Origin: Patescibacteria group bacterium | Lineage (GTDB): Bacteria > Patescibacteriota > Minisyncoccia > Phycocordibacterales > JACOZG01 | DNA length: 64,000 bases | Reading direction: 5' to 3' | NCBI GenBank assembly: GCA_034658935.1 | Contig: JAYEGE010000008.1 | Location: 3,400-67,399 of the forward strand | Part shown: positions 8,002-58,074 of the stretch, piece after piece | Layout of the letters: every line of letters begins with the position of its first letter | How positions within the stretch are numbered: position 1 is the stretch's first letter | Notes under the pieces: model-generated | Told to the model about the DNA's origin: nothing | Seen by the model: only the letters and a program-made list of their open reading frames with translations | Database searches by the model: none | Program-made: the position numbers and the translations under genes

Positions 8002-8742
8002 ATGATGACGATGAGTACATCGATCACATCGACTGAAGGTTCGGGGATCACGCGGGGACAGAGGGAGTCTTGTACAGAGTTGATCACTCATGCCGCCCGT
8101 AAAGCGGCGACAGCAGCGATCAACGACCTTGAGGCCAACGGCGTACTCGACAAGGAGAACATCGAACGGGTCAGAGCCCGAGGAAACGAGGTGGTTGCCG
8201 CGATCACTGCGACAGTTAAGGCGAAATTCGCTGAGATCGCCGACAACGTCGCCGGTTACCTCCGCCTTATCTCCGGGGCTGAGACTATCACCCTCGACCC
8301 AACCGACGGGCAGGCAACCATCGCCAGGGCGGAGAATGTCTTCACTGACCGGATTGGCGGTGATTTCCGGGACTACTACGGCATTGACGTGCCTGGTCAG
8401 CCTACTATGGAGACCAAGGTCCAGGTCCACGAGATGGTCAAGGATGGCAACTTCAGGAGGATCTTTGGCGGCCTGTCAGAGAAGCTCGATGCCTTGAAGT
8501 TCGAGCAGAACCAGATCATCCAGTTCTGTCAGAAACACCGCCGGTGGCTCCGCACCGGCGGCTACGCCACCTTCTTCCTTTTCAAGGTGAAGGGTGAGTT
8601 CTTCGTGGCGCACGTCCGCTACTACGCCGGTGGCTACCTCGGGGTTGACGGGGGCCGCTTCTCGTACGACTATGTCTGGGGTGCTGACCACCGGCATCGG
8701 GTGGTCGTTCCGCAACTGCCCCTTGGCCCCTCTGACTCCTGA
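8002..8742 (+). CDS. GC-rich orphan hypothetical protein; candidate DGR target (its C-terminal 117 bp is duplicated downstream)
   Basis: Good RBS (aaaggaaagggag). No recognisable domain. Visibly higher GC than the flanks. The 3' segment 8596-8712 is identical to 9047-9163. Confidence 0.5.
   Translation: MMTMSTSITSTEGSGITRGQRESCTELITHAARKAATAAINDLEANGVLDKENIERVRARGNEVVAAITATVKAKFAEIADNVAGYLRLISGAETITLDPTDGQATIARAENVFTDRIGGDFRDYYGIDVPGQPTMETKVQVHEMVKDGNFRRIFGGLSEKLDALKFEQNQIIQFCQKHRRWLRTGGYATFFLFKVKGEFFVAHVRYYAGGYLGVDGGRFSYDYVWGADHRHRVVVPQLPLGPSDS
8596..8712 (+). repeat. 117-bp direct repeat copy A (VR-like, inside the 3' end of the 8002..8742 ORF)
   Basis: Identical base-for-base to 9047-9163 by manual alignment. 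The repeat ends 30 bp before the ORF stop. Confidence 0.85.
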
Positions 8743-9046: not shown

Positions 9047-9163
9047 GAGTTCTTCGTGGCGCACGTCCGCTACTACGCCGGTGGCTACCTCGGGGTTGAC
9101 GGGGGCCGCTTCTCGTACGACTATGTCTGGGGTGCTGACCACCGGCATCGGGTGGTCGTTCCG
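9047..9163 (+). repeat. 117-bp direct repeat copy B (TR-like position, immediately 3' of the Avd-like gene on the opposite strand)
   Basis: Identical to 8596-8712. The ORF-track ORF 9014..9319 that spans it is probably spurious. Confidence 0.85.
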
Positions 9164-9170
9164 AAACTTG

Positions 9171-12453: not shown

Positions 12454-12491
12454 GGCCCCACGAGAACTTGTTCTCGTGGGGCCCTTTTTTT
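12454..12491 (+). terminator. rho-independent terminator (ggccccacgagaa / ttctcgtggggcc followed by T8)
   Basis: 13-bp hairpin followed by TTTTTTTG. Confidence 0.7.
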
Positions 12492-20222: not shown

Positions 20223-20321
20223 GGTTAGAGTTTTTGTATGATTGCGGCGGGCCTTGCCTCGCCGTAGCCGCGAGGTAGATTTGGCGAAGCCCGACTTCGC
20301 TAGAGCTACGTCGTGGCGAAG

Positions 20322-20392
20322 GCGGGTATAGTTTAGTGGTAGAACACGACCTTCCCAAGGTTGAAACGGGGGTTCGATTCCCCCTACCCGCA
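20322..20392 (+). tRNA. tRNA-Gly (anticodon CCC)
   Basis: Manually folded cloverleaf: acceptor gcgggta/tacccgc, anticodon loop ttCCCaa, T-loop ggttcgattcc. No encoded CCA. Confidence 0.8.
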
Positions 20393-20477
20393 CTTTTGTT
20401 GAGAAAAGAAAAAGCCCCCCTGATCCGCTGTAGCGAATCGGGAGGGCGTCGAGGTTTAAGTGCCTCTGTGTCTGTGA

Positions 20478-20852
20478 AGGTTAGTCCCGCCTCTTCGGCG
20501 TACCCATACGTTTTCTACTGCTTCGATAGGGTGGCACTCAGTTACCTACGGCGATGGCCTCTTTGTAGCGGTGGCATATGATGGCACCAATAGCGCGATG
20601 ACTTCACCTGACGGCATTACTTGGACAGCTCGTGCGACCGCGGAAGTAAATTTTTGGTACAGTGTTACCTACGGCAATGGCACCTTCGTGGCAACGGCTG
20701 GTTCTGGCACCAACCGTGTCATGACCTCAGGAAAAGCCGATCTCTACGACAATCCACACGATAATATCTACCAAGGTGGTATGTCCATCATGGGCGGTAA
20801 CGTCGGCATGGGAACAACCACTGACATTCCACGAGGCTCAACCTCGTGGTAA
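20478..20852 (+). pseudogene. 5'-truncated fragment of a repeat protein (WxSVTYGNGxFVA tandem repeats)
   Basis: The open frame starts right after a stop, with no ATG or RBS. It contains GWHSVTYGDGLFVAVAYDG...ITWTARATAEVNFWYSVTYGNGTFVATAGSG. The ORF track gives it a GTG start at 20571. It sits between tRNA-Gly and the IS-like element. Confidence 0.4.
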
Positions 20853-21583
20853 GATAGGGTTATGTCTAGGCAGATTGAGTTCTCGGTTGACGAATTTTAT
20901 CATCTCTATAATCGCGGTAATGATAAACGCGATATTTTTTTAAGCTCGGCCGACAGGCGTCGCTTTACTGCTTTATTATATCTCTCCAACTCTTGCCACT
21001 CCTTCCACTTCGAGGAACTAAAAAATGCCCCATTTGATTTTGATCGTGGGGCGGCTCTGGTCGATATCGGGGCCTATTGTTTAATGACCAACCATTACCA
21101 CTTGTTAGTCCGAGAACGTCAAGAAAATGGTATCAGTCAATTTATGCATCGTCTGTCCACTGGCTACACCATGTATTTTAACAAGAGGTGGCAACGTCGC
21201 GGTTCGTTATTCGAAGGTCGTTTCCGCGCCAACCATGCCGGTGAGGACAGGTACCTTCATTATTTATTTGCCTATATTCATCTTAATCCGGTCAAAATGA
21301 TTCAAGCGGATTGGCGGGTGATTGGTTTGAAAGACAAAGCATCGGCCAAAGATTTTCTCGGCCAATATTTATACTCGAGTTATCAAGATTGTCTTGGTTT
21401 GAAGCGTGAGAGTGGCAAACTGCTTGCTCGAGAGGCTTTTCCTGACTATTTCTCCGAATCGAATGAGTTTGATAGTTTTTTATCTGATTGGTTGAATTAC
21501 CATGACCACGAGGTTGAGCCTCGTGGGGAGAGGGGGCTAAAGTGACTTGACCTTTTAAGATTCCACGAGGCTCAACCTCGTGG
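20829..21583 (+). mobile_element. IS200/IS605-like mini-element 1 (Y1/HUH transposase gene bounded by palindrome ccacgagg-ctcaa-cctcgtgg)
   Basis: Identical hairpins at 20829-20849 and 21563-21583, both within the direct repeat attccacgaggctcaacctcgtggt(a/t)aag. An inverted copy lies at 21506-21526. Total length 755 bp. Confidence 0.65.
20862..21545 (+). CDS. Y1 HUH transposase (IS200-like / RAYT-like)
   Basis: CLMTNHYHLLV (HUH motif) and YLFAYIHLNPVK (catalytic Tyr motif). Length 227 aa. Paralogous to 43120.. and 57321.. Confidence 0.7.
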   Translation: MSRQIEFSVDEFYHLYNRGNDKRDIFLSSADRRRFTALLYLSNSCHSFHFEELKNAPFDFDRGAALVDIGAYCLMTNHYHLLVRERQENGISQFMHRLSTGYTMYFNKRWQRRGSLFEGRFRANHAGEDRYLHYLFAYIHLNPVKMIQADWRVIGLKDKASAKDFLGQYLYSSYQDCLGLKRESGKLLAREAFPDYFSESNEFDSFLSDWLNYHDHEVEPRGERGLK

Positions 21584-21635
21584 TTAAGCTTGTCGGGCTT
21601 CCATTCCCGGCCAAAGATTAGTAGCATTTTAGTAA

Positions 21636-22189: not shown

Positions 22190-22224
22190 TTTATCCGCCC
22201 AAATGCGAAGCTTTTGGCAGGGCG

Positions 22225-22444
22225 GTTTGCTTGCCCTCGTAGCCCCGACGCCTTTGCATAGGGGTCGGGGTCCCGACTGAAGCAAGGCGAACGTCGGGAT
22301 TCAATGATAGACTTTGTGCGAAGTGGTTTGCTTGCCCTCGTAGCCCCGACGCCCTTGCATAGGGGTCGGGGTCCCGACTGAAGCAAGGCGAACGTCGGGA
22401 TTCAATGATAGACTTTGTGCGAAGTGGTTTGCTTGCCCTCGTAG
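22225..22444 (+). repeat. 101-bp tandem repeat (2.2 copies) whose 5' 18 bp equals the first 10 nt of tRNA-Arg plus its 8-nt leader
   Basis: Unit starts at 22225, 22326 and 22427, so the period is 101 bp. Each unit has two hairpins with cccgac/gtcggg stems. Confidence 0.8.
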
Positions 22445-22506
22445 TTCAATGGATAGAACGGCCCCCTCCTAAGGGGCAGATGCAGGTTCGACTCCTGCCG
22501 AGGGCA
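22435..22506 (+). tRNA. tRNA-Arg (anticodon CCT)
   Basis: Manual fold: acceptor gccctcg/cgagggc, anticodon loop ctCCTaa, T-loop ggttcgactcc. Confidence 0.8.
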
Positions 22507-22665
22507 AAAAATAAAAGAGACTTATGCGTATGTATGAGGCGACTGTTATTTTTTAGCCCTCGGCAGGAGTCGGGGTCGAGAGTACTTAGATTTTTGCGAA
22601 TGCCTGGAGTAAAAAGCTTAGTAACTCGTGACCGACTCCCCCTCCTCCACCCTATTTTATATACT

Positions 22666-23862: not shown

Positions 23863-24126
23863 ATGGCCTATGTCTATATTCTTCGCTGCGATGGCAATCG
23901 TTATTATGTGGGCAGTGCAGTTGATTTACAAAAGAGGCTTAAACATCATGATAGAGGTCTAACTCCCTCGACAAAAAGATTAGGAAATTGCCACTTGGTT
24001 TTGTCTCAAGAGTACGAAACCTTGATTGATGCTAGATTAGTGGAGGGTAAAATTAAGAAGTTGAAAAGAAAAGATTACATCGCTAGAATGGTAAAAGATG
24101 GCGTAATCAAAGTAATGCCTCGGTAG
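23863..24126 (+). CDS. GIY-YIG nuclease family protein (small stand-alone)
   Basis: MAYVYILRCDGNRYYVGSAVDLQKRLKHHDRG shows the GIY-YIG motifs. Its 3' end overlaps tRNA-Phe by 10 nt. Confidence 0.75.
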   Translation: MAYVYILRCDGNRYYVGSAVDLQKRLKHHDRGLTPSTKRLGNCHLVLSQEYETLIDARLVEGKIKKLKRKDYIARMVKDGVIKVMPR

Positions 24127-24188
24127 CTCAGTGGTAGAGCGCCTGCCTGAAGAGCAGGGCGTCGGTGGTTCAATTCCGCCCCGAGGCA
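24117..24188 (+). tRNA. tRNA-Phe (anticodon GAA)
   Basis: Manual fold: acceptor gcctcgg/ccgaggc, anticodon loop ctGAAga (G37 is atypical for Phe), T-loop ggttcaattcc. Confidence 0.7.
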
Positions 24189-24189
24189 C

Positions 24190-24352
24190 ACTCGTACTTA
24201 CTTGGTAGCTTGTCCCGACCGGTTTGCGTGCGTCGGGAAGCGCCTGCCCCCGACGTTTCAGTCGGGGCGGAGCTGAAGAGCAGGGCGTCGGTGGTTCCCC
24301 GCCCGACACGCAAGACGAGCTTGCGAGTCGTTGCGGGCGGGAATTCCGCCCC
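24190..24352 (+). repeat. degenerate tRNA-Phe-like copy (anticodon arm through 3' end plus CCA) interrupted by three small GC-rich hairpins
   Basis: agcgcctgc[ccccgacgtttcagtcggggcggag]ctgaagagcagggcgtcggtggttc[44-nt hairpin]aattccgccccgaggcacca. The D-arm region is replaced by the hairpin tcccgac...gtcggga. Confidence 0.6.
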
Positions 24353-35135: not shown

Positions 35136-36416
35136 CTATTGGCCCAGGCGGAGATTGCCCTTAGCGACAAGGGAAGCCCCGATGTTGCATCGGGGTTCTT
35201 CGCTGTTTAAGGCTCTAAAATAGCCTGCGGCGGCGATCATGGTGGCATTATCGGTTGCCAGGGTGACGTCGGGGAAGAGTACTTTAATTGAGCTATTTTG
35301 GCCCTCTAGGGCCTGTCCCAAAGCTTGCTTGAGGCTTTTGTTGGCCATGACTCCACCGGCGGCAATAAAGGTTTTTGGCCCGTGTTTCTCGGCCGCTTTA
35401 AGGGTTTTGTGGACCAAGACGTCAATTACTGCTTGCTGAAATTCAGCCGCGATGGCCGCCTTGGTGGTTTGATCCAGCTCTTCTGCTCCGCCGAGTTTTT
35501 TGACCAAATAAAGTACCGCCGTTTTGAGCCCTGAAAAGGAAAAATCAAAATCCTTAGAATTAATCATCGGCCTCGGCAGCCCCCACTTGCACTTGGACAT
35601 TGAATGTCCAAGTGGCCCATTCTGACCTGGACATTCAATGTCCAGGTGGTTCTTAGCTAGTTTAGAAATTTCTGGTCCGCCCGGGTAGGGCAGGTCGAGG
35701 ATGCGAGCTACCTTGTCGAAGGCTTCACCGGCGGCATCATCGCGGGTCTGGCCGATAATTTCGTAATCAAGCCAATCGCGCATCAGTACCAACTCCGTAT
35801 GCCCCCCACTTACTATCAACCCCAAAACAGGAAACTCTATTTTTTTGGACTTTGGACTTCGCAATTTGAATTTCCTGTCAGTTATCAGAACTGACAGCAA
35901 GTGTCCTTCTAAGTGATTGATGGGCACCAACGGTTTGCCCCAAGCGAGAGCAAGGGCTTTGGCCGCGTTGATTCCCACCCATAGGGCTGGTTCTAGTCCG
36001 GGGCCTTCAGTGACAGCGATGACGTCAATATCTGACACCTCATTGGCGTCGAGAAAAGCCAGCAGTTTTTCAGCCAACTCTGGCTCACGTTCTAAAATCT
36101 CTTTAATTTCTTCCCGTATTTCTTTCTCAAGTTTGTTGGCCCCGTTTTCTTTTTTTGAACCCCGTCTCGCCGTCGGGCAGGTTTGAACTTTGAACTTTGA
36201 CATTTCTAGTGCCCTCTTCAGTAGGGGCACTAGGCGTTTAGCGTGTTCGCGTTTGGCCAGCATGGGCACCACACCACCGTAGAGGGTGTGTAAGTCTACT
36301 TGCGAATGGACGGCTTCGGCTAGAACTTCAAAAACAGGCCGCTCGAAGCCGCCTTTAGCTGACACTATACTAACCGCTGTCTCGTCGCAGCTTGTTTCAA
36401 TCGCGAGTATTTTCAT
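35136..36416 (-). CDS. tsaD: tRNA N6-adenosine threonylcarbamoyltransferase TsaD, carrying three insertions
   Basis: MKILAIETSCDETAVSIV, HLEGHLLS, VSGGHTELV and DFSFSGLKT are all present. At 426 aa it is longer than the roughly 340 aa typical. Confidence 0.85.
   Translation of the reverse strand: MKILAIETSCDETAVSIVSAKGGFERPVFEVLAEAVHSQVDLHTLYGGVVPMLAKREHAKRLVPLLKRALEMSKFKVQTCPTARRGSKKENGANKLEKEIREEIKEILEREPELAEKLLAFLDANEVSDIDVIAVTEGPGLEPALWVGINAAKALALAWGKPLVPINHLEGHLLSVLITDRKFKLRSPKSKKIEFPVLGLIVSGGHTELVLMRDWLDYEIIGQTRDDAAGEAFDKVARILDLPYPGGPEISKLAKNHLDIECPGQNGPLGHSMSKCKWGLPRPMINSKDFDFSFSGLKTAVLYLVKKLGGAEELDQTTKAAIAAEFQQAVIDVLVHKTLKAAEKHGPKTFIAAGGVMANKSLKQALGQALEGQNSSIKVLFPDVTLATDNATMIAAAGYFRALNSEEPRCNIGASLVAKGNLRLGQ
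35585..35646. repeat. pair of perfect palindromes (25 nt cacttggacattgaatgtccaagtg and 21 nt cctggacattcaatgtccagg) inserted in-frame within tsaD
   Basis: Seen directly in the sequence. Together they encode the extra peptide HLDIECPGQNGPLGHSMSKCK, which is absent from canonical TsaD. Confidence 0.75.
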
Positions 36417-39486: not shown

Positions 39487-39591
39487 CACTACGCTGAAAC
39501 TACGCGGGGCAAGCCCTAAGTAGACAACATGTAGACGCAAATAATAACATTTTTTGTCAAAAAAGTAAAAAGATGGTAGATTGATCGCACT

Positions 39592-39676
39592 GGAGGCGTG
39601 GCAGAGTGGTCTATCGCGCCGCACTCGAAATGCGGTTGGGAGCAATCCCTCGGGGGTTCGAATCCTCCCGCCTCCG
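39592..39676 (+). tRNA. tRNA-Ser (anticodon CGA), long variable arm
   Basis: ggaggcg...ccgcaCTCGAAAtgcgg...long variable arm...gggggttcgaatcctcc-cgcctcc-g. Confidence 0.75.
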
Positions 39677-39720
39677 TCCTCGCCACGACGTGGTTTTAAC
39701 GAAGTCGAGACGAGTCATTG

Positions 39721-39745
39721 TCAAGGTCGGACCTTGCCACGGGCG
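39721..39745. repeat. solitary degenerate copy of the element-3 terminal palindrome (tgtcaaggtcggaccttgccacg)
   Basis: Matches cactgtcaaggtc(c/g)gaccttgacagtg of 57229-57255 and 57996-58022, with a mutated 3' arm. Confidence 0.55.
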
Positions 39746-43044: not shown

Positions 43045-43071
43045 TGCGCTATTCTAACATGCATTCCAACC

Positions 43072-43825
43072 TGTGCAACACTTAGTGTTGCACAAATGAG
43101 CTGAGCTTACTAAACTGTAGTGGATATGCGTCGGATCAAAATCAGTCCAGGAGAATGTTACCATCTTTATAATAGAGGCAATAATAAGCAGAACATATTC
43201 CGTGATAATCGTGATCGAGCCCGCCTCCTCTTCCTTTTGATAGGTTTGCAATCCGAACTATCTTTCAAAAATATCAGTCGATTAGTTTCAGCTTTAACTA
43301 AAAGACCAAAACTTATCTTGAATGCTCGAGTTGTCTCTGAGGTTAGTGCAGCTCGTTACGTTGATCTAATTAGTTTTGTCTTAATGCCCAACCATTTTCA
43401 TTTAATTGTTTTTGAACGCAAAGAAGGTGGTATTGCTAAATACATGCAACGAGCGCTCAACGCCTATACAAAATATTTTAATACTCGGTATAAAAAAATG
43501 GGCATGTATTTGGGGGGACATACCAAGCCGTTCATATCGAAGACAATGATCAGCTTCTTTATGCTTCTGCCTATCTCCACAGAAATGCTCACCAATTACC
43601 AGTTTGGACTGGTCGCTCGGCGGAGTATCCTTGGTCAAGTTATAGTGATTACGTCGGAAATAATCGGTGGGGGGAGCTTTTAAACCGGCGAATGATTATG
43701 GAACAATTTGTCGACGGTAACGAATACCGACAGTGGGTTGAGACCAGTAGTGCCAAGGACCAAGATTGGGAATTTCAAGAGGGGAACTAAATTGTGCAAC
43801 ACTGTGCAACACTTAGTGTTGCACA
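43072..43825 (+). mobile_element. IS200/IS605-like mini-element 2 (palindrome tgtgcaacac-tta-gtgttgcaca at both ends)
   Basis: Hairpins at 43072-43094 and 43803-43825, plus an extra half-copy at 43793-43802. Total length 754 bp. Confidence 0.65.
43120..43790 (+). pseudogene. Y1 HUH transposase paralog, frameshifted
   Basis: The N-terminal part (CYHLYNRGNNKQNIF...LMPNHFHLIV) is in one frame. The C-terminal part (...LLYASAYLHRNAHQLPVWTGRSAEYPWSSY...) is in another. The switch falls at the A7/G6 homopolymers around 43500-43520. Confidence 0.6.
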
Positions 43826-43829
43826 GAAA

Positions 43830-57178: not shown

Positions 57179-57228
57179 ATAAGGGGAGATGGGCATGCGC
57201 TCTCATACCTGGCGTTATTTCGCACACC

Positions 57229-58022
57229 CACTGTCAAGGTCCGACCTTGACAGTGAAGTTATCCCCCTAAAACAGGGGGTATATCTTTGGCAAGGTCCGA
57301 CCTTGGGGTAGAATTGACCAATGACTAGGAGGTTTAAGTTTGCTCCTGGAGAGTATTACCATATTTATAATCGAGGCAATGATCGCCGCAGTATTTTCCT
57401 ATCTGGCAAAGACCGTGATCGCTTTCTCGCTCTGCTTTACGTTTGCAATAGTGGCGAGGTTCTCCATCTGAGTGATTACCCCCAAACCTCCCTGCTGAAA
57501 TTGCTGAGTCTGCCTAGGTCTTCAGTATTGGCAGATATCGGTGCCTATTGTTTGATGCCAAACCATTTCCACTTATTGGTACGGGAGAACGAGGAGGGTG
57601 GCATTAGCCGCTTGATGCAGAAATTACTGACTGCTTACACCATGTATTTTAATCGTAAGCATCAACACACCGGCTCTTTGTTTGAGGGTCGCTTTCGAGC
57701 CAGACACGTTAGCGACGATCGACATTTGCAGTATCTCTTCGCCTATATTCATCTCAATCCTGTTAAGGTTAGAGACCCTGACAATTGGGAGAAAAAAACT
57801 ATTCTCGATACGGATGAAGCGGTACGTTTTTTGAATACCTACCCGTACTCTAGTTTTCTCGATTATCTCGGTCGGAATAGGGGAGAGGGGGCAATCATAA
57901 ACCCGTCGGCTTTCCCAGAGTATTTTTCGGTGCCGTCTGATTTCTCCGATTTTGTACAGGATTGGATGAGTTTTGACGAAGAGGAGGATCTCACCACTGT
58001 CAAGGTCGGACCTTGACAGTGA
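57229..58022 (+). mobile_element. IS200/IS605-like mini-element 3 (palindrome cactgtcaaggtc-c/g-gaccttgacagtg at both ends)
   Basis: Hairpins at 57229-57255 and 57996-58022 lie within 40-bp direct repeats. An extra partial hairpin is at 57291-57305. Total length 794 bp. Confidence 0.65.
57321..58016 (+). CDS. Y1 HUH transposase (IS200-like / RAYT-like)
   Basis: CLMPNHFHLLV (HUH motif) and YLFAYIHLNPVK (Tyr motif). Length 231 aa. About 60% similar to the 20862 copy. Confidence 0.7.
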   Translation: MTRRFKFAPGEYYHIYNRGNDRRSIFLSGKDRDRFLALLYVCNSGEVLHLSDYPQTSLLKLLSLPRSSVLADIGAYCLMPNHFHLLVRENEEGGISRLMQKLLTAYTMYFNRKHQHTGSLFEGRFRARHVSDDRHLQYLFAYIHLNPVKVRDPDNWEKKTILDTDEAVRFLNTYPYSSFLDYLGRNRGEGAIINPSAFPEYFSVPSDFSDFVQDWMSFDEEEDLTTVKVGP

Positions 58023-58074
58023 ATAATCCCCAGAGGGCGGCTTTGTTTTAAGATAAAAGAGGTATAATTGAATT

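Follow-up and report, generated by a model that had tools for sequence, protein, structure and literature searches.

A class-2 Y1 HUH endonuclease gene with cognate flanking palindromes: a probable REPtron/TIRtron-type cassette in a Patescibacteria genome

This study concerns a 64,000-nucleotide (nt) stretch of DNA from a Patescibacteria group bacterium (contig JAYEGE010000008.1, positions 3,400 to 67,399), referred to below as the window. Within it lies a compact unit, here called unit 1, consisting of a single gene for a 227-amino-acid (aa) HUH/Y1 protein and the short hairpins around it. Based on the evidence set out below, unit 1 is probably a REPtron/TIRtron-type cassette, in which a class-2 Y1 HUH endonuclease gene is bracketed by its own cognate palindrome.

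The unit 1 hairpin has an 8-bp stem and a 5-nt loop and occurs three times: twice in direct orientation, at the left end and at an outer position beyond the gene, and once inverted within the 3' end of the open reading frame (ORF; Table 1). To this extent the sequence agrees with the original prediction, which had described identical 21-nt direct hairpins and an inverted third copy. The number of such matches expected by chance is 0 in dinucleotide-preserving shuffles, and the hairpin folds as single-stranded DNA (ssDNA) with -9.7 kcal/mol (z = -4.2). According to a repeat finder the true direct repeat is 25 nt and thus longer than the hairpin that it contains. The left hairpin stands 12 nt ahead of the ATG and, together with the inner copy, gives flanking inverted repeats with 22-nt, 100% complementary arms (20829-20850 and 21505-21526) that overlap the gene end. 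The inner and outer copies in turn make a REPIN-like inverted pair (21505-21526 and 21560-21584; 22-nt arms, 36-nt spacer), which as ssDNA forms a 22-bp stem with -28 kcal/mol (z = -7.6). No hairpin was terminator-like in a terminator scan and none carries a T-run; a search of the whole window against Rfam returned six tRNAs only, the hairpins matching no RNA family.

The limits of the unit were examined in a three-way DNA alignment with the loci of its two closest relatives, P0002 (70% protein identity, locus L081) and P0003 (66%, locus L082). Homology runs from 2 nt before the left hairpin to the hairpin over the ORF 3' end, and a hairpin is present at this homologous position in both relatives. 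Since the homology ends there, the conserved cassette, as delimited by sequence comparison, is approximately 20827-21528 and ends at the inner inverted hairpin. The outer hairpin has no counterpart in L081 or L082 and is a window-specific extra copy.

The encoded protein is a member of the HUH/Y1 (TnpA_Y1) superfamily with intact HuH and tyrosine motifs. Its ORF contains NHYHLL, LFEG, YIHLNPV and YSS, and the earlier identification of an HUH/Y1 protein from HYHLL and YIHLNPV was borne out by a profile search, in which Pfam Y1_Tnp (PF01797) matched residues 67-140 (E = 7.6e-9; 36.2 bits, the cutoff being 23). Residues N77, H78, H80, F117, Y138, H140, L141, N142, P143, S172 and S173 are invariant in an alignment of 25 sequences. 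The AlphaFold (AF2) model (pLDDT, the predicted local distance difference test score, 85.7) has the b-a-b-b-a-b-a HUH topology; strand 78-85 bears the HuH motif, and helix 129-146 carries Y138. Its best PDB match in Foldseek was 4er8_A, E. coli TnpA_REP with a REP hairpin (E = 1.4e-5), followed by the IS608, ISDra2 and IS200 transposases (2vjv, 2xm3 and 2f4f among the entries). The link to 4ER8 comes from fold comparison only: PDB searches by sequence, using the protein alone or the family profile, gave no significant match, 4ER8 included. At the C-terminus the protein carries a tail of about 85 aa that is helical in the model. Neither Pfam nor NCBIfam detected a second domain in the 227 aa, and neither a C-terminal helix-turn-helix (Bac_DnaA_C, HTH_23, HTH_28) nor a DnaA-like domain was found; no PADLOC defence-system model matched.

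Subclass 2.1 of the TnpA_Y1 proteins is characterized by NH[YF]H, F[QE] replacing W[EQ], Y[IV]HLNP, an SS tail and a median length of 238 aa (Quentin et al. 2018, PMC6006769, Table 1), and was equated by the same authors with RAYT group 1 of Bertels et al. and, probably, with the TIRYTs of Di Nocera et al. Given its NH[YF]H motif, the F in place of the class-2 W, Y[IV]HLNP, the SS tail and a length near 238 aa, the unit 1 protein fits this group most closely, an assignment made by motifs and length rather than by reference phylogeny. The original prediction had taken the protein for a TnpA of the IS200/IS605 type. IS200 TnpA (subclass 1.1), however, has DH[VI]H and Y---Q in a core-only protein of about 150 aa (PMC6006769), whereas unit 1 has NHYH, Y---NP and the extra tail, and that classification is not upheld. 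The accompanying remark that the size is nearer to that of RAYTs than to that of IS200 TnpA holds (227 aa against about 150 aa).

A search for homologues found more than 3,800 relatives. The best 120 are 190-260 aa long, and those among them that are named are listed as 'transposase' of Patescibacteria, Parcubacteria, Yonathbacteria, Nomurabacteria or Paceibacterota. When 1.84 billion cluster representatives were searched by profile, 1,050 clusters matched at E <= 1e-30; at E <= 1e-10 there were 14,143. A phage-borne family was considered and rejected, as 2.9 million viral contigs contained just one distant relative, which makes the family all but absent from them.

The hairpin bracket was then surveyed in 80 related loci from species-representative genomes. 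Under a strict rule, an exact copy of the locus's own hairpin (stem of at least 7 bp, loop included) had to lie both no more than 200 nt ahead of the start and no more than 100 nt from the stop. This rule was passed by 39 of 78 family genes and by none of 192 control ORFs of at least 150 aa from the same loci; with relaxed matching, a hairpin common to the upstream and stop regions was seen in about 65-70 of the 80 loci. The median distance from the end of the left hairpin to the ATG is 32 nt, and the right hairpin mostly lies over or directly after the stop codon. Stem sequences differ by lineage, an AGG(T)-NNN-(A)CCT apex being common to many, and protein identity correlates with stem identity (Spearman 0.25), a value that none of 2000 Mantel label permutations reached. 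Family-wide, lineage-specific and not found around control genes, the hairpins are thereby supported as belonging to the gene.

In at least 7 of the 80 relatives a third copy of the own hairpin lies in frame inside the ORF, at codons ~52-62 (ORF nt 153-176), in the loop between helix A and strand 2. The loci concerned are L006, L009, L020, L030, L047, L051, L055 and L072, and the units of the window have no such copy. These ORFs are intact, the one exception being an in-frame stop in the extended frame of L009. The internal hairpin varies in sequence by lineage, each matching its own flanks, and the peptide (L/Y)QG.(T/S)L is the translation of CAAGGnnnnnCCTTG. Two further observations were made on the family loci. 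The 6.6-kb locus L052 contains a second family paralogue, some 2.8-3.3 kb upstream of the gene that was matched, and many metagenome contigs with P0061 and P0045 (L086-L097) end 150-460 nt from the gene, which may reflect assembly trouble at palindromes or repeats.

The two closest relatives offer a finer view of what is conserved. Both L081 and L082 carry the unit 1 stem CCACGAGG/CCTCGTGG, with loops CTTCG and CTGAG in place of CTCAA, once about 35 nt ahead of the likely start codon and a second time within the ORF 3' end, where it encodes HEASPRG or HEAEPRG. The 8-bp stem is identical in all hairpin copies but one, the left copy of L081, in which one base is changed. Across the same genes pN (nonsynonymous differences) is 0.18-0.21 and pS (synonymous differences) 0.68-0.77, that is, saturated, a pattern that indicates strong purifying selection on the unit 1 gene. 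Retention of the stem's identity while synonymous sites are saturated argues for recognition of the stem by its sequence and not by mere base pairing. L081 also has two additional CCACGAGG hairpin copies upstream of the cassette (785-803 and ~1260), one inverted and one degenerate. The neighbourhoods of the two relatives are related neither to one another nor to the window, with PemK and type II secretion genes in one and AbiEii and a tRNA synthetase in the other. The case named earlier as refuting a mobile unit, syntenic relatives without hairpins, did not occur: the relatives have hairpins, and their contexts are non-syntenic.

Two more diverged paralogues were found within the window by tblastn and the repeat finder, each with a different palindrome, so that three units carry three repeat types (Table 1). 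Unit 2 has a half-stem duplicate at 43793-43802 and an ORF running from an ATG at 43126 to a stop at 43788-43790, with 39% identity to unit 1 across the N-terminal part. This ORF shifts to the -1 frame exactly at an A7 run (43492-43498, TATAAAAAAATGGG), beyond which the frame retains the conserved NGHVFGG...YLHRNA...YPWSSY; the change could mean that the gene is a pseudogene, that the assembly has a homopolymer error or that -1 slippage takes place on A AAA AAA. The unit 3 ORF (57321-58016) encodes 231 aa with 50% identity to unit 1. Its right palindrome overlaps the stop codon, a shorter core copy lies at 57288-57305, and its flanking inverted repeats have 40-nt arms that are 88% complementary. 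An exact inverted match to this core occurs 17.5 kb away from unit 3 and 43 nt downstream of tRNA-Ser (39591-39679), with 0 expected by chance. None of the three hairpins has another dispersed copy in the 64 kb, solo copies of the unit 1 and unit 2 hairpins numbering 0. Overall, extra hairpin copies collect beside the genes, and solo ones elsewhere are few. A hairpin at 12454-12483 was tried as a solo unit 1 copy and rejected: it has CCACGAG/CTCGTGG but a different apex and a T-run, and is taken as an ordinary terminator.

Table 1. Coordinates of the three units, the solo hairpin core and the neighbouring features in the window
Feature	Position	Strand	Description
Left repeat of unit 1	20826..20850	+	ATT + CCACGAGG-CTCAA-CCTCGTGG (hairpin 20829-20849) + T
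Class-2 TnpA_Y1 (RAYT-like) gene	20862..21545	+	227 aa; H78/H80 in NHYH, catalytic Tyr Y138 in YIHLNP, S172-S173 tail motif
Right hairpin of conserved cassette	21506..21526	-	Inverted copy, loop TTGAG on + strand; within ORF 3' end, encodes HEVEPRG
Outer extra copy of 25-nt left repeat	21560..21584	+	Hairpin 21563-21583, loop CTCAA as in left copy
Paralogous unit 2	43071..43826	+	Palindrome TGTGCAACAC-TTA-GTGTTGCACA at 43072-43094 and 43803-43825
Paralogous unit 3	57228..58023	+	13-bp-stem palindrome CACTGTCAAGGTC-C/G-GACCTTGACAGTG at 57229-57255 and 57995-58021
Solo unit 3 hairpin core	39722..39739	-	Exact 18-nt inverted match to 57288-57305
tRNA-Gly(CCC)	20322..20393	+	436 nt upstream of left hairpin
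Repeat-protein fragment frame	20478..20852	+	Open, no start codon at 5' end, ends inside left hairpin

The stereotyped placement of the hairpins, close before the ATG and over or just past the stop, would also be expected if they were regulatory or structural parts of a domesticated nuclease gene, acting as stem-loops in the mRNA 5' untranslated region and 3' end (stability or translation) or as double-stranded DNA operators of a dimeric autoregulator. REPs are known to stabilise mRNA, and indifference to orientation, low copy number, a stable context and the third in-frame copy in some members would suit such a role. However, it is the sequence of the stem and not just its pairing that is kept at synonymous saturation, and this sequence co-varies with the protein lineage, which points to recognition by the encoded protein. 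Extra or solo copies away from such genes (39722-39739; L081 position 785), cassettes in unrelated contexts with homology stopping at the hairpins, the missing terminator T-run and a nearest structural relative that binds an ssDNA hairpin all argue in the same direction. We therefore consider a purely regulatory or structural role improbable.

A second explanation is that unit 1 is an active autonomous IS200-like insertion sequence, a 755-bp unit that moves whole by peel-and-paste via same-strand subterminal hairpins and that destroyed a gene on arrival. The Y1 HUH fold, the hairpins at both ends with the outer copy as a direct 25-nt repeat of the left end, the confinement of homology to the cassette and the different contexts of relatives all agree with this, as does the standing of group 1 as the most IS-like RAYT group (Bertels et al. 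2017, PMC5581495). In an all-vs-all blastn comparison of the family loci, homology extended past the hairpin in one pair only (L043/L046). On the other hand, the protein has the class-2 signature Y---NP instead of Y---Q, plus the C-terminal tail. The same-orientation hairpins, which the original prediction had read as the element ends, do not appear to be the conserved ones: the conserved right end is the inverted inner copy, the outer direct copy is specific to the window, and across the family the right copy is direct to the left one in about 22 loci and inverted in 15. Even between unit 1 and L082 the conserved right copy changes from inverted to direct.

Nor was an IS-like copy-number signature found in the 64 kb or among relatives. 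The window paralogues are only 39-50% identical, their hairpins are all different, and they are old; for two relatives, identical proteins on 10-12 contigs from different samples always occupy a single context each, which speaks against recent activity. The cleavage-site tetranucleotides sought beside the hairpins were not found either, none being conserved in 39 loci, and the neighbouring gene is truncated at its distal 5' end. Taken together, these observations make an active IS200-like element unlikely, though less so than the regulatory explanation.

Returning to the preferred reading of a class-2 endonuclease gene with its cognate palindrome, a working model can be drawn by analogy with E. 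coli TnpA_REP (PDB 4ER8) and the IS608 and ISDra2 TnpA proteins. The enzyme would bind the hairpin extruded in ssDNA, for instance on the lagging-strand template, cut beside it through a 5'-phosphotyrosine link and rejoin the ends. Single hairpins or inverted pairs might occasionally be copied or moved in this way (the outer copy at 21563-21583 and the solo copy at 39722-39739 being candidates), and more rarely the whole hairpin-gene-hairpin segment might be transferred, which would explain the unrelated contexts of relatives. The cassette would then be slow, low-copy and largely vertically maintained, standing between an insertion sequence and a domesticated RAYT.

Several points weigh against this reading. 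The NCBIfam model REP_Tyr_transpos (NF047646) scores 37.5 bits, far below its cutoff of 80; the placement in subclass 2.1 is by motifs and length and not by a phylogeny with reference sequences; and subclass 2.1 has been reported without REP-like flanks (PMC6006769). The mixed hairpin orientation needs explaining under a strictly strand-specific single-strand mechanism, although the palindromes are near-perfect and the hairpin is nearly the same from either strand. Beside the hairpins of the 39 loci neither a GT[AG]G foot nor any conserved flank, cleavage motif or target motif was found, the feet of the unit 1 hairpins being ATT/T and TCC/T with no GT[AG]G among them. GGGGWSAS is not enriched (3 of 76 loci against ~3.3 expected), and the lone match in unit 1 (21525-21532) is not kept in L081 or L082. 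With one solo hairpin per 64 kb, REP-like proliferation is at best feeble. As for recent movement, we found no near-identical copies, empty site or circle junction; exact look-ups of the cassette protein and of both neighbour proteins, made in search of an empty site, yielded nothing but short Logan contigs, all from sample SRR26901924 and all arranged in the same way. A scan of JGI metagenomes for CCACGAGG-N5-CCTCGTGG gave 80 loci, 2 of them beside a homologue and the rest resembling chance or unrelated hairpins, and is uninformative on dispersal in this genome.

Among known systems, the TIRYTs (subclass 2.1, group 1) come closest. They share with unit 1 a length of about 230 aa and the full set of motifs (NH[YF]H, F for the class-2 W, Y[IV]HLNP and an SS-containing tail). 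Di Nocera et al. (2013, PMC3733652) describe RAYT-like genes with repeats of their own on either side, some self-complementary and some overlapping the 5' or 3' gene end, as in unit 1, and report three TIRYT genes in Koribacter whose repeats differ. Diverged paralogues that occur several to a genome and differ in their repeats, low copy number and an intragenomic identity of about 49% are likewise common to the TIRYTs and to the window. The flanks differ, in that here they are short near-perfect palindromic hairpins, often with the AGG(T)-NNN-(A)CCT apex, and not long terminal inverted repeats; GGGGWSAS, the majority type of such repeats in TIRYTs, is not enriched, and the tail has no DnaA-like or helix-turn-helix Pfam domain.

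Contrary to the hairpin flanks seen here, Quentin et al. found no REP-like structures with subclass 2.1 (PMC6006769). They sampled complete genomes only, a sample from which Patescibacteria were probably lacking, and neither their study nor the TIRYT study mentions these hosts. None of the papers covered by our literature search connects RAYT or TIRYT analysis with Patescibacteria or the Candidate Phyla Radiation. The layout is thus known from other bacteria and the host group, a little-studied phylum, is apparently new. It also appears to be new that hairpins flank the gene of a protein whose signature is that of a subclass reported to be without REP-like partners.

The E. coli TnpA_REP REPtron (subclass 2.2, REP/BIME, PDB 4ER8) is the best structural match and has Y---NP, cognate flanking hairpins and protein-hairpin co-evolution in common with unit 1, to which the REPIN-like inverted pair at 21505-21584 may be added. 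Unlike it, unit 1 has no GT[AG]G foot, its protein is about 60 aa longer without a sequence-level match to 4ER8, and there is at most one dispersed copy per 64 kb, against hundreds in a genome. The tnpA-only IS200 elements resemble unit 1 in being units of about 700 bp with one Y1 HUH gene, hairpins near both ends and no long terminal inverted repeats of the kind found in classical insertion sequences. Their hairpins, however, are imperfect, subterminal and on one strand, and their copies are numerous and about 99% identical, neither of which appears to hold here. Finally, subclass 2.4 tnpA_REP genes have REP insertions inside the gene (PMC6006769), as do the relatives with internal hairpins, in which the internal copy differs in lying before the HuH motif.

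Whatever its exact mode of maintenance, the system has consequences for how these genes are viewed. Tiny, gene-dense Patescibacteria genomes retain several diverged Y1 enzymes, each tied to a private hairpin and accompanied by almost no dispersed repeats, which argues against labelling such genes simply 'transposase' or IS200 copies. With an exact pair in about half of the 78 loci and around a thousand clusters, the family also provides natural enzyme-hairpin pairs for reading the substrates of class-2 Y1 enzymes. RAYT/REP is the textbook case of a transposase that became a host-maintained gene with its own population of hairpin repeats; to our knowledge the step from an autonomous IS200-like element to that state is poorly documented.

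More tentatively, the mainly Patescibacteria clade (about 1,000 clusters at 50% identity, typically 215-240 aa) might represent a still-mobile, self-contained hairpin-gene-hairpin element, whose private hairpin co-evolves with the enzyme and in some lineages has been written in frame into its own gene at one fixed loop. We hold this to be possible but doubtful. Were it true, insertion sequences of the IS200 type and domesticated RAYT/REP systems would have in this clade a living intermediate, and enzymes of the subclass 2.1 type, reported without REP-like partners, would use hairpin substrates after all.

The region upstream of unit 1 contains a fragment of a repeat-protein gene, which, as the original prediction suggested, might have been destroyed by the insertion. 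Its frame (20478-20852) holds two blades of the repeat W.SVTYGNG.FVAV..GTNRVMTS.DG.TW, and its full-length relatives, at 180-215 aa, have an N-terminal leader and a larger number of blades; NCBI annotates an 84-aa ORF here (P0123). Since it is the 5' end, facing the tRNA, that is lacking, the cassette, judging by the arrangement, cannot have caused the truncation. The left hairpin does provide the last 7 codons and the stop of the fragment, and nothing resembling a remainder of the gene lies beyond the cassette, so the original 3' end may have been replaced by the hairpin. With the truncation at the 5' end, away from the cassette, and no remainder beyond it, destruction of the gene by insertion is unproven. 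The earlier position of the left end relative to tRNA-Gly was correct. Targeting of tRNA genes was considered and rejected, as a tRNA lies within 600 nt in 4 of the 80 family loci against ~3 expected by chance; the adjacency to tRNA-Gly is incidental.

Other repeats in the window were recorded alongside. A 34-nt inverted repeat (82%) links 20292-20325, just upstream of tRNA-Gly, with 39674-39707, which covers the 3' end of tRNA-Ser and the sequence beyond. About three tandem copies of a 101-nt unit (76-89% identity) occupy 22202-22444 and run into the 5' end of tRNA-Arg(CCT) (22434-22507), with a 23-nt inverted repeat just after this tRNA (22489-22511 and 22550-22572). An exact 25-nt direct repeat joins 24147-24171, within tRNA-Phe (24117-24189), to 24273-24297, the second copy lying 126 nt downstream; it may be what is left of an integration site or a tRNA duplicated in part. 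At 8596-8717 and 9047-9168, with a spacing of 451 nt, stand the two copies of a 122-nt direct repeat, which are 99% identical. Two adjacent palindromes at 35590-35648 (stems of 12 and 11 bp) are mutual inverted copies (24 nt at 92%, 11-nt spacer) and lie inside the minus-strand ORF 35136-36416; the pair is REPIN-like, and its sequence is unrelated to that of the three units.

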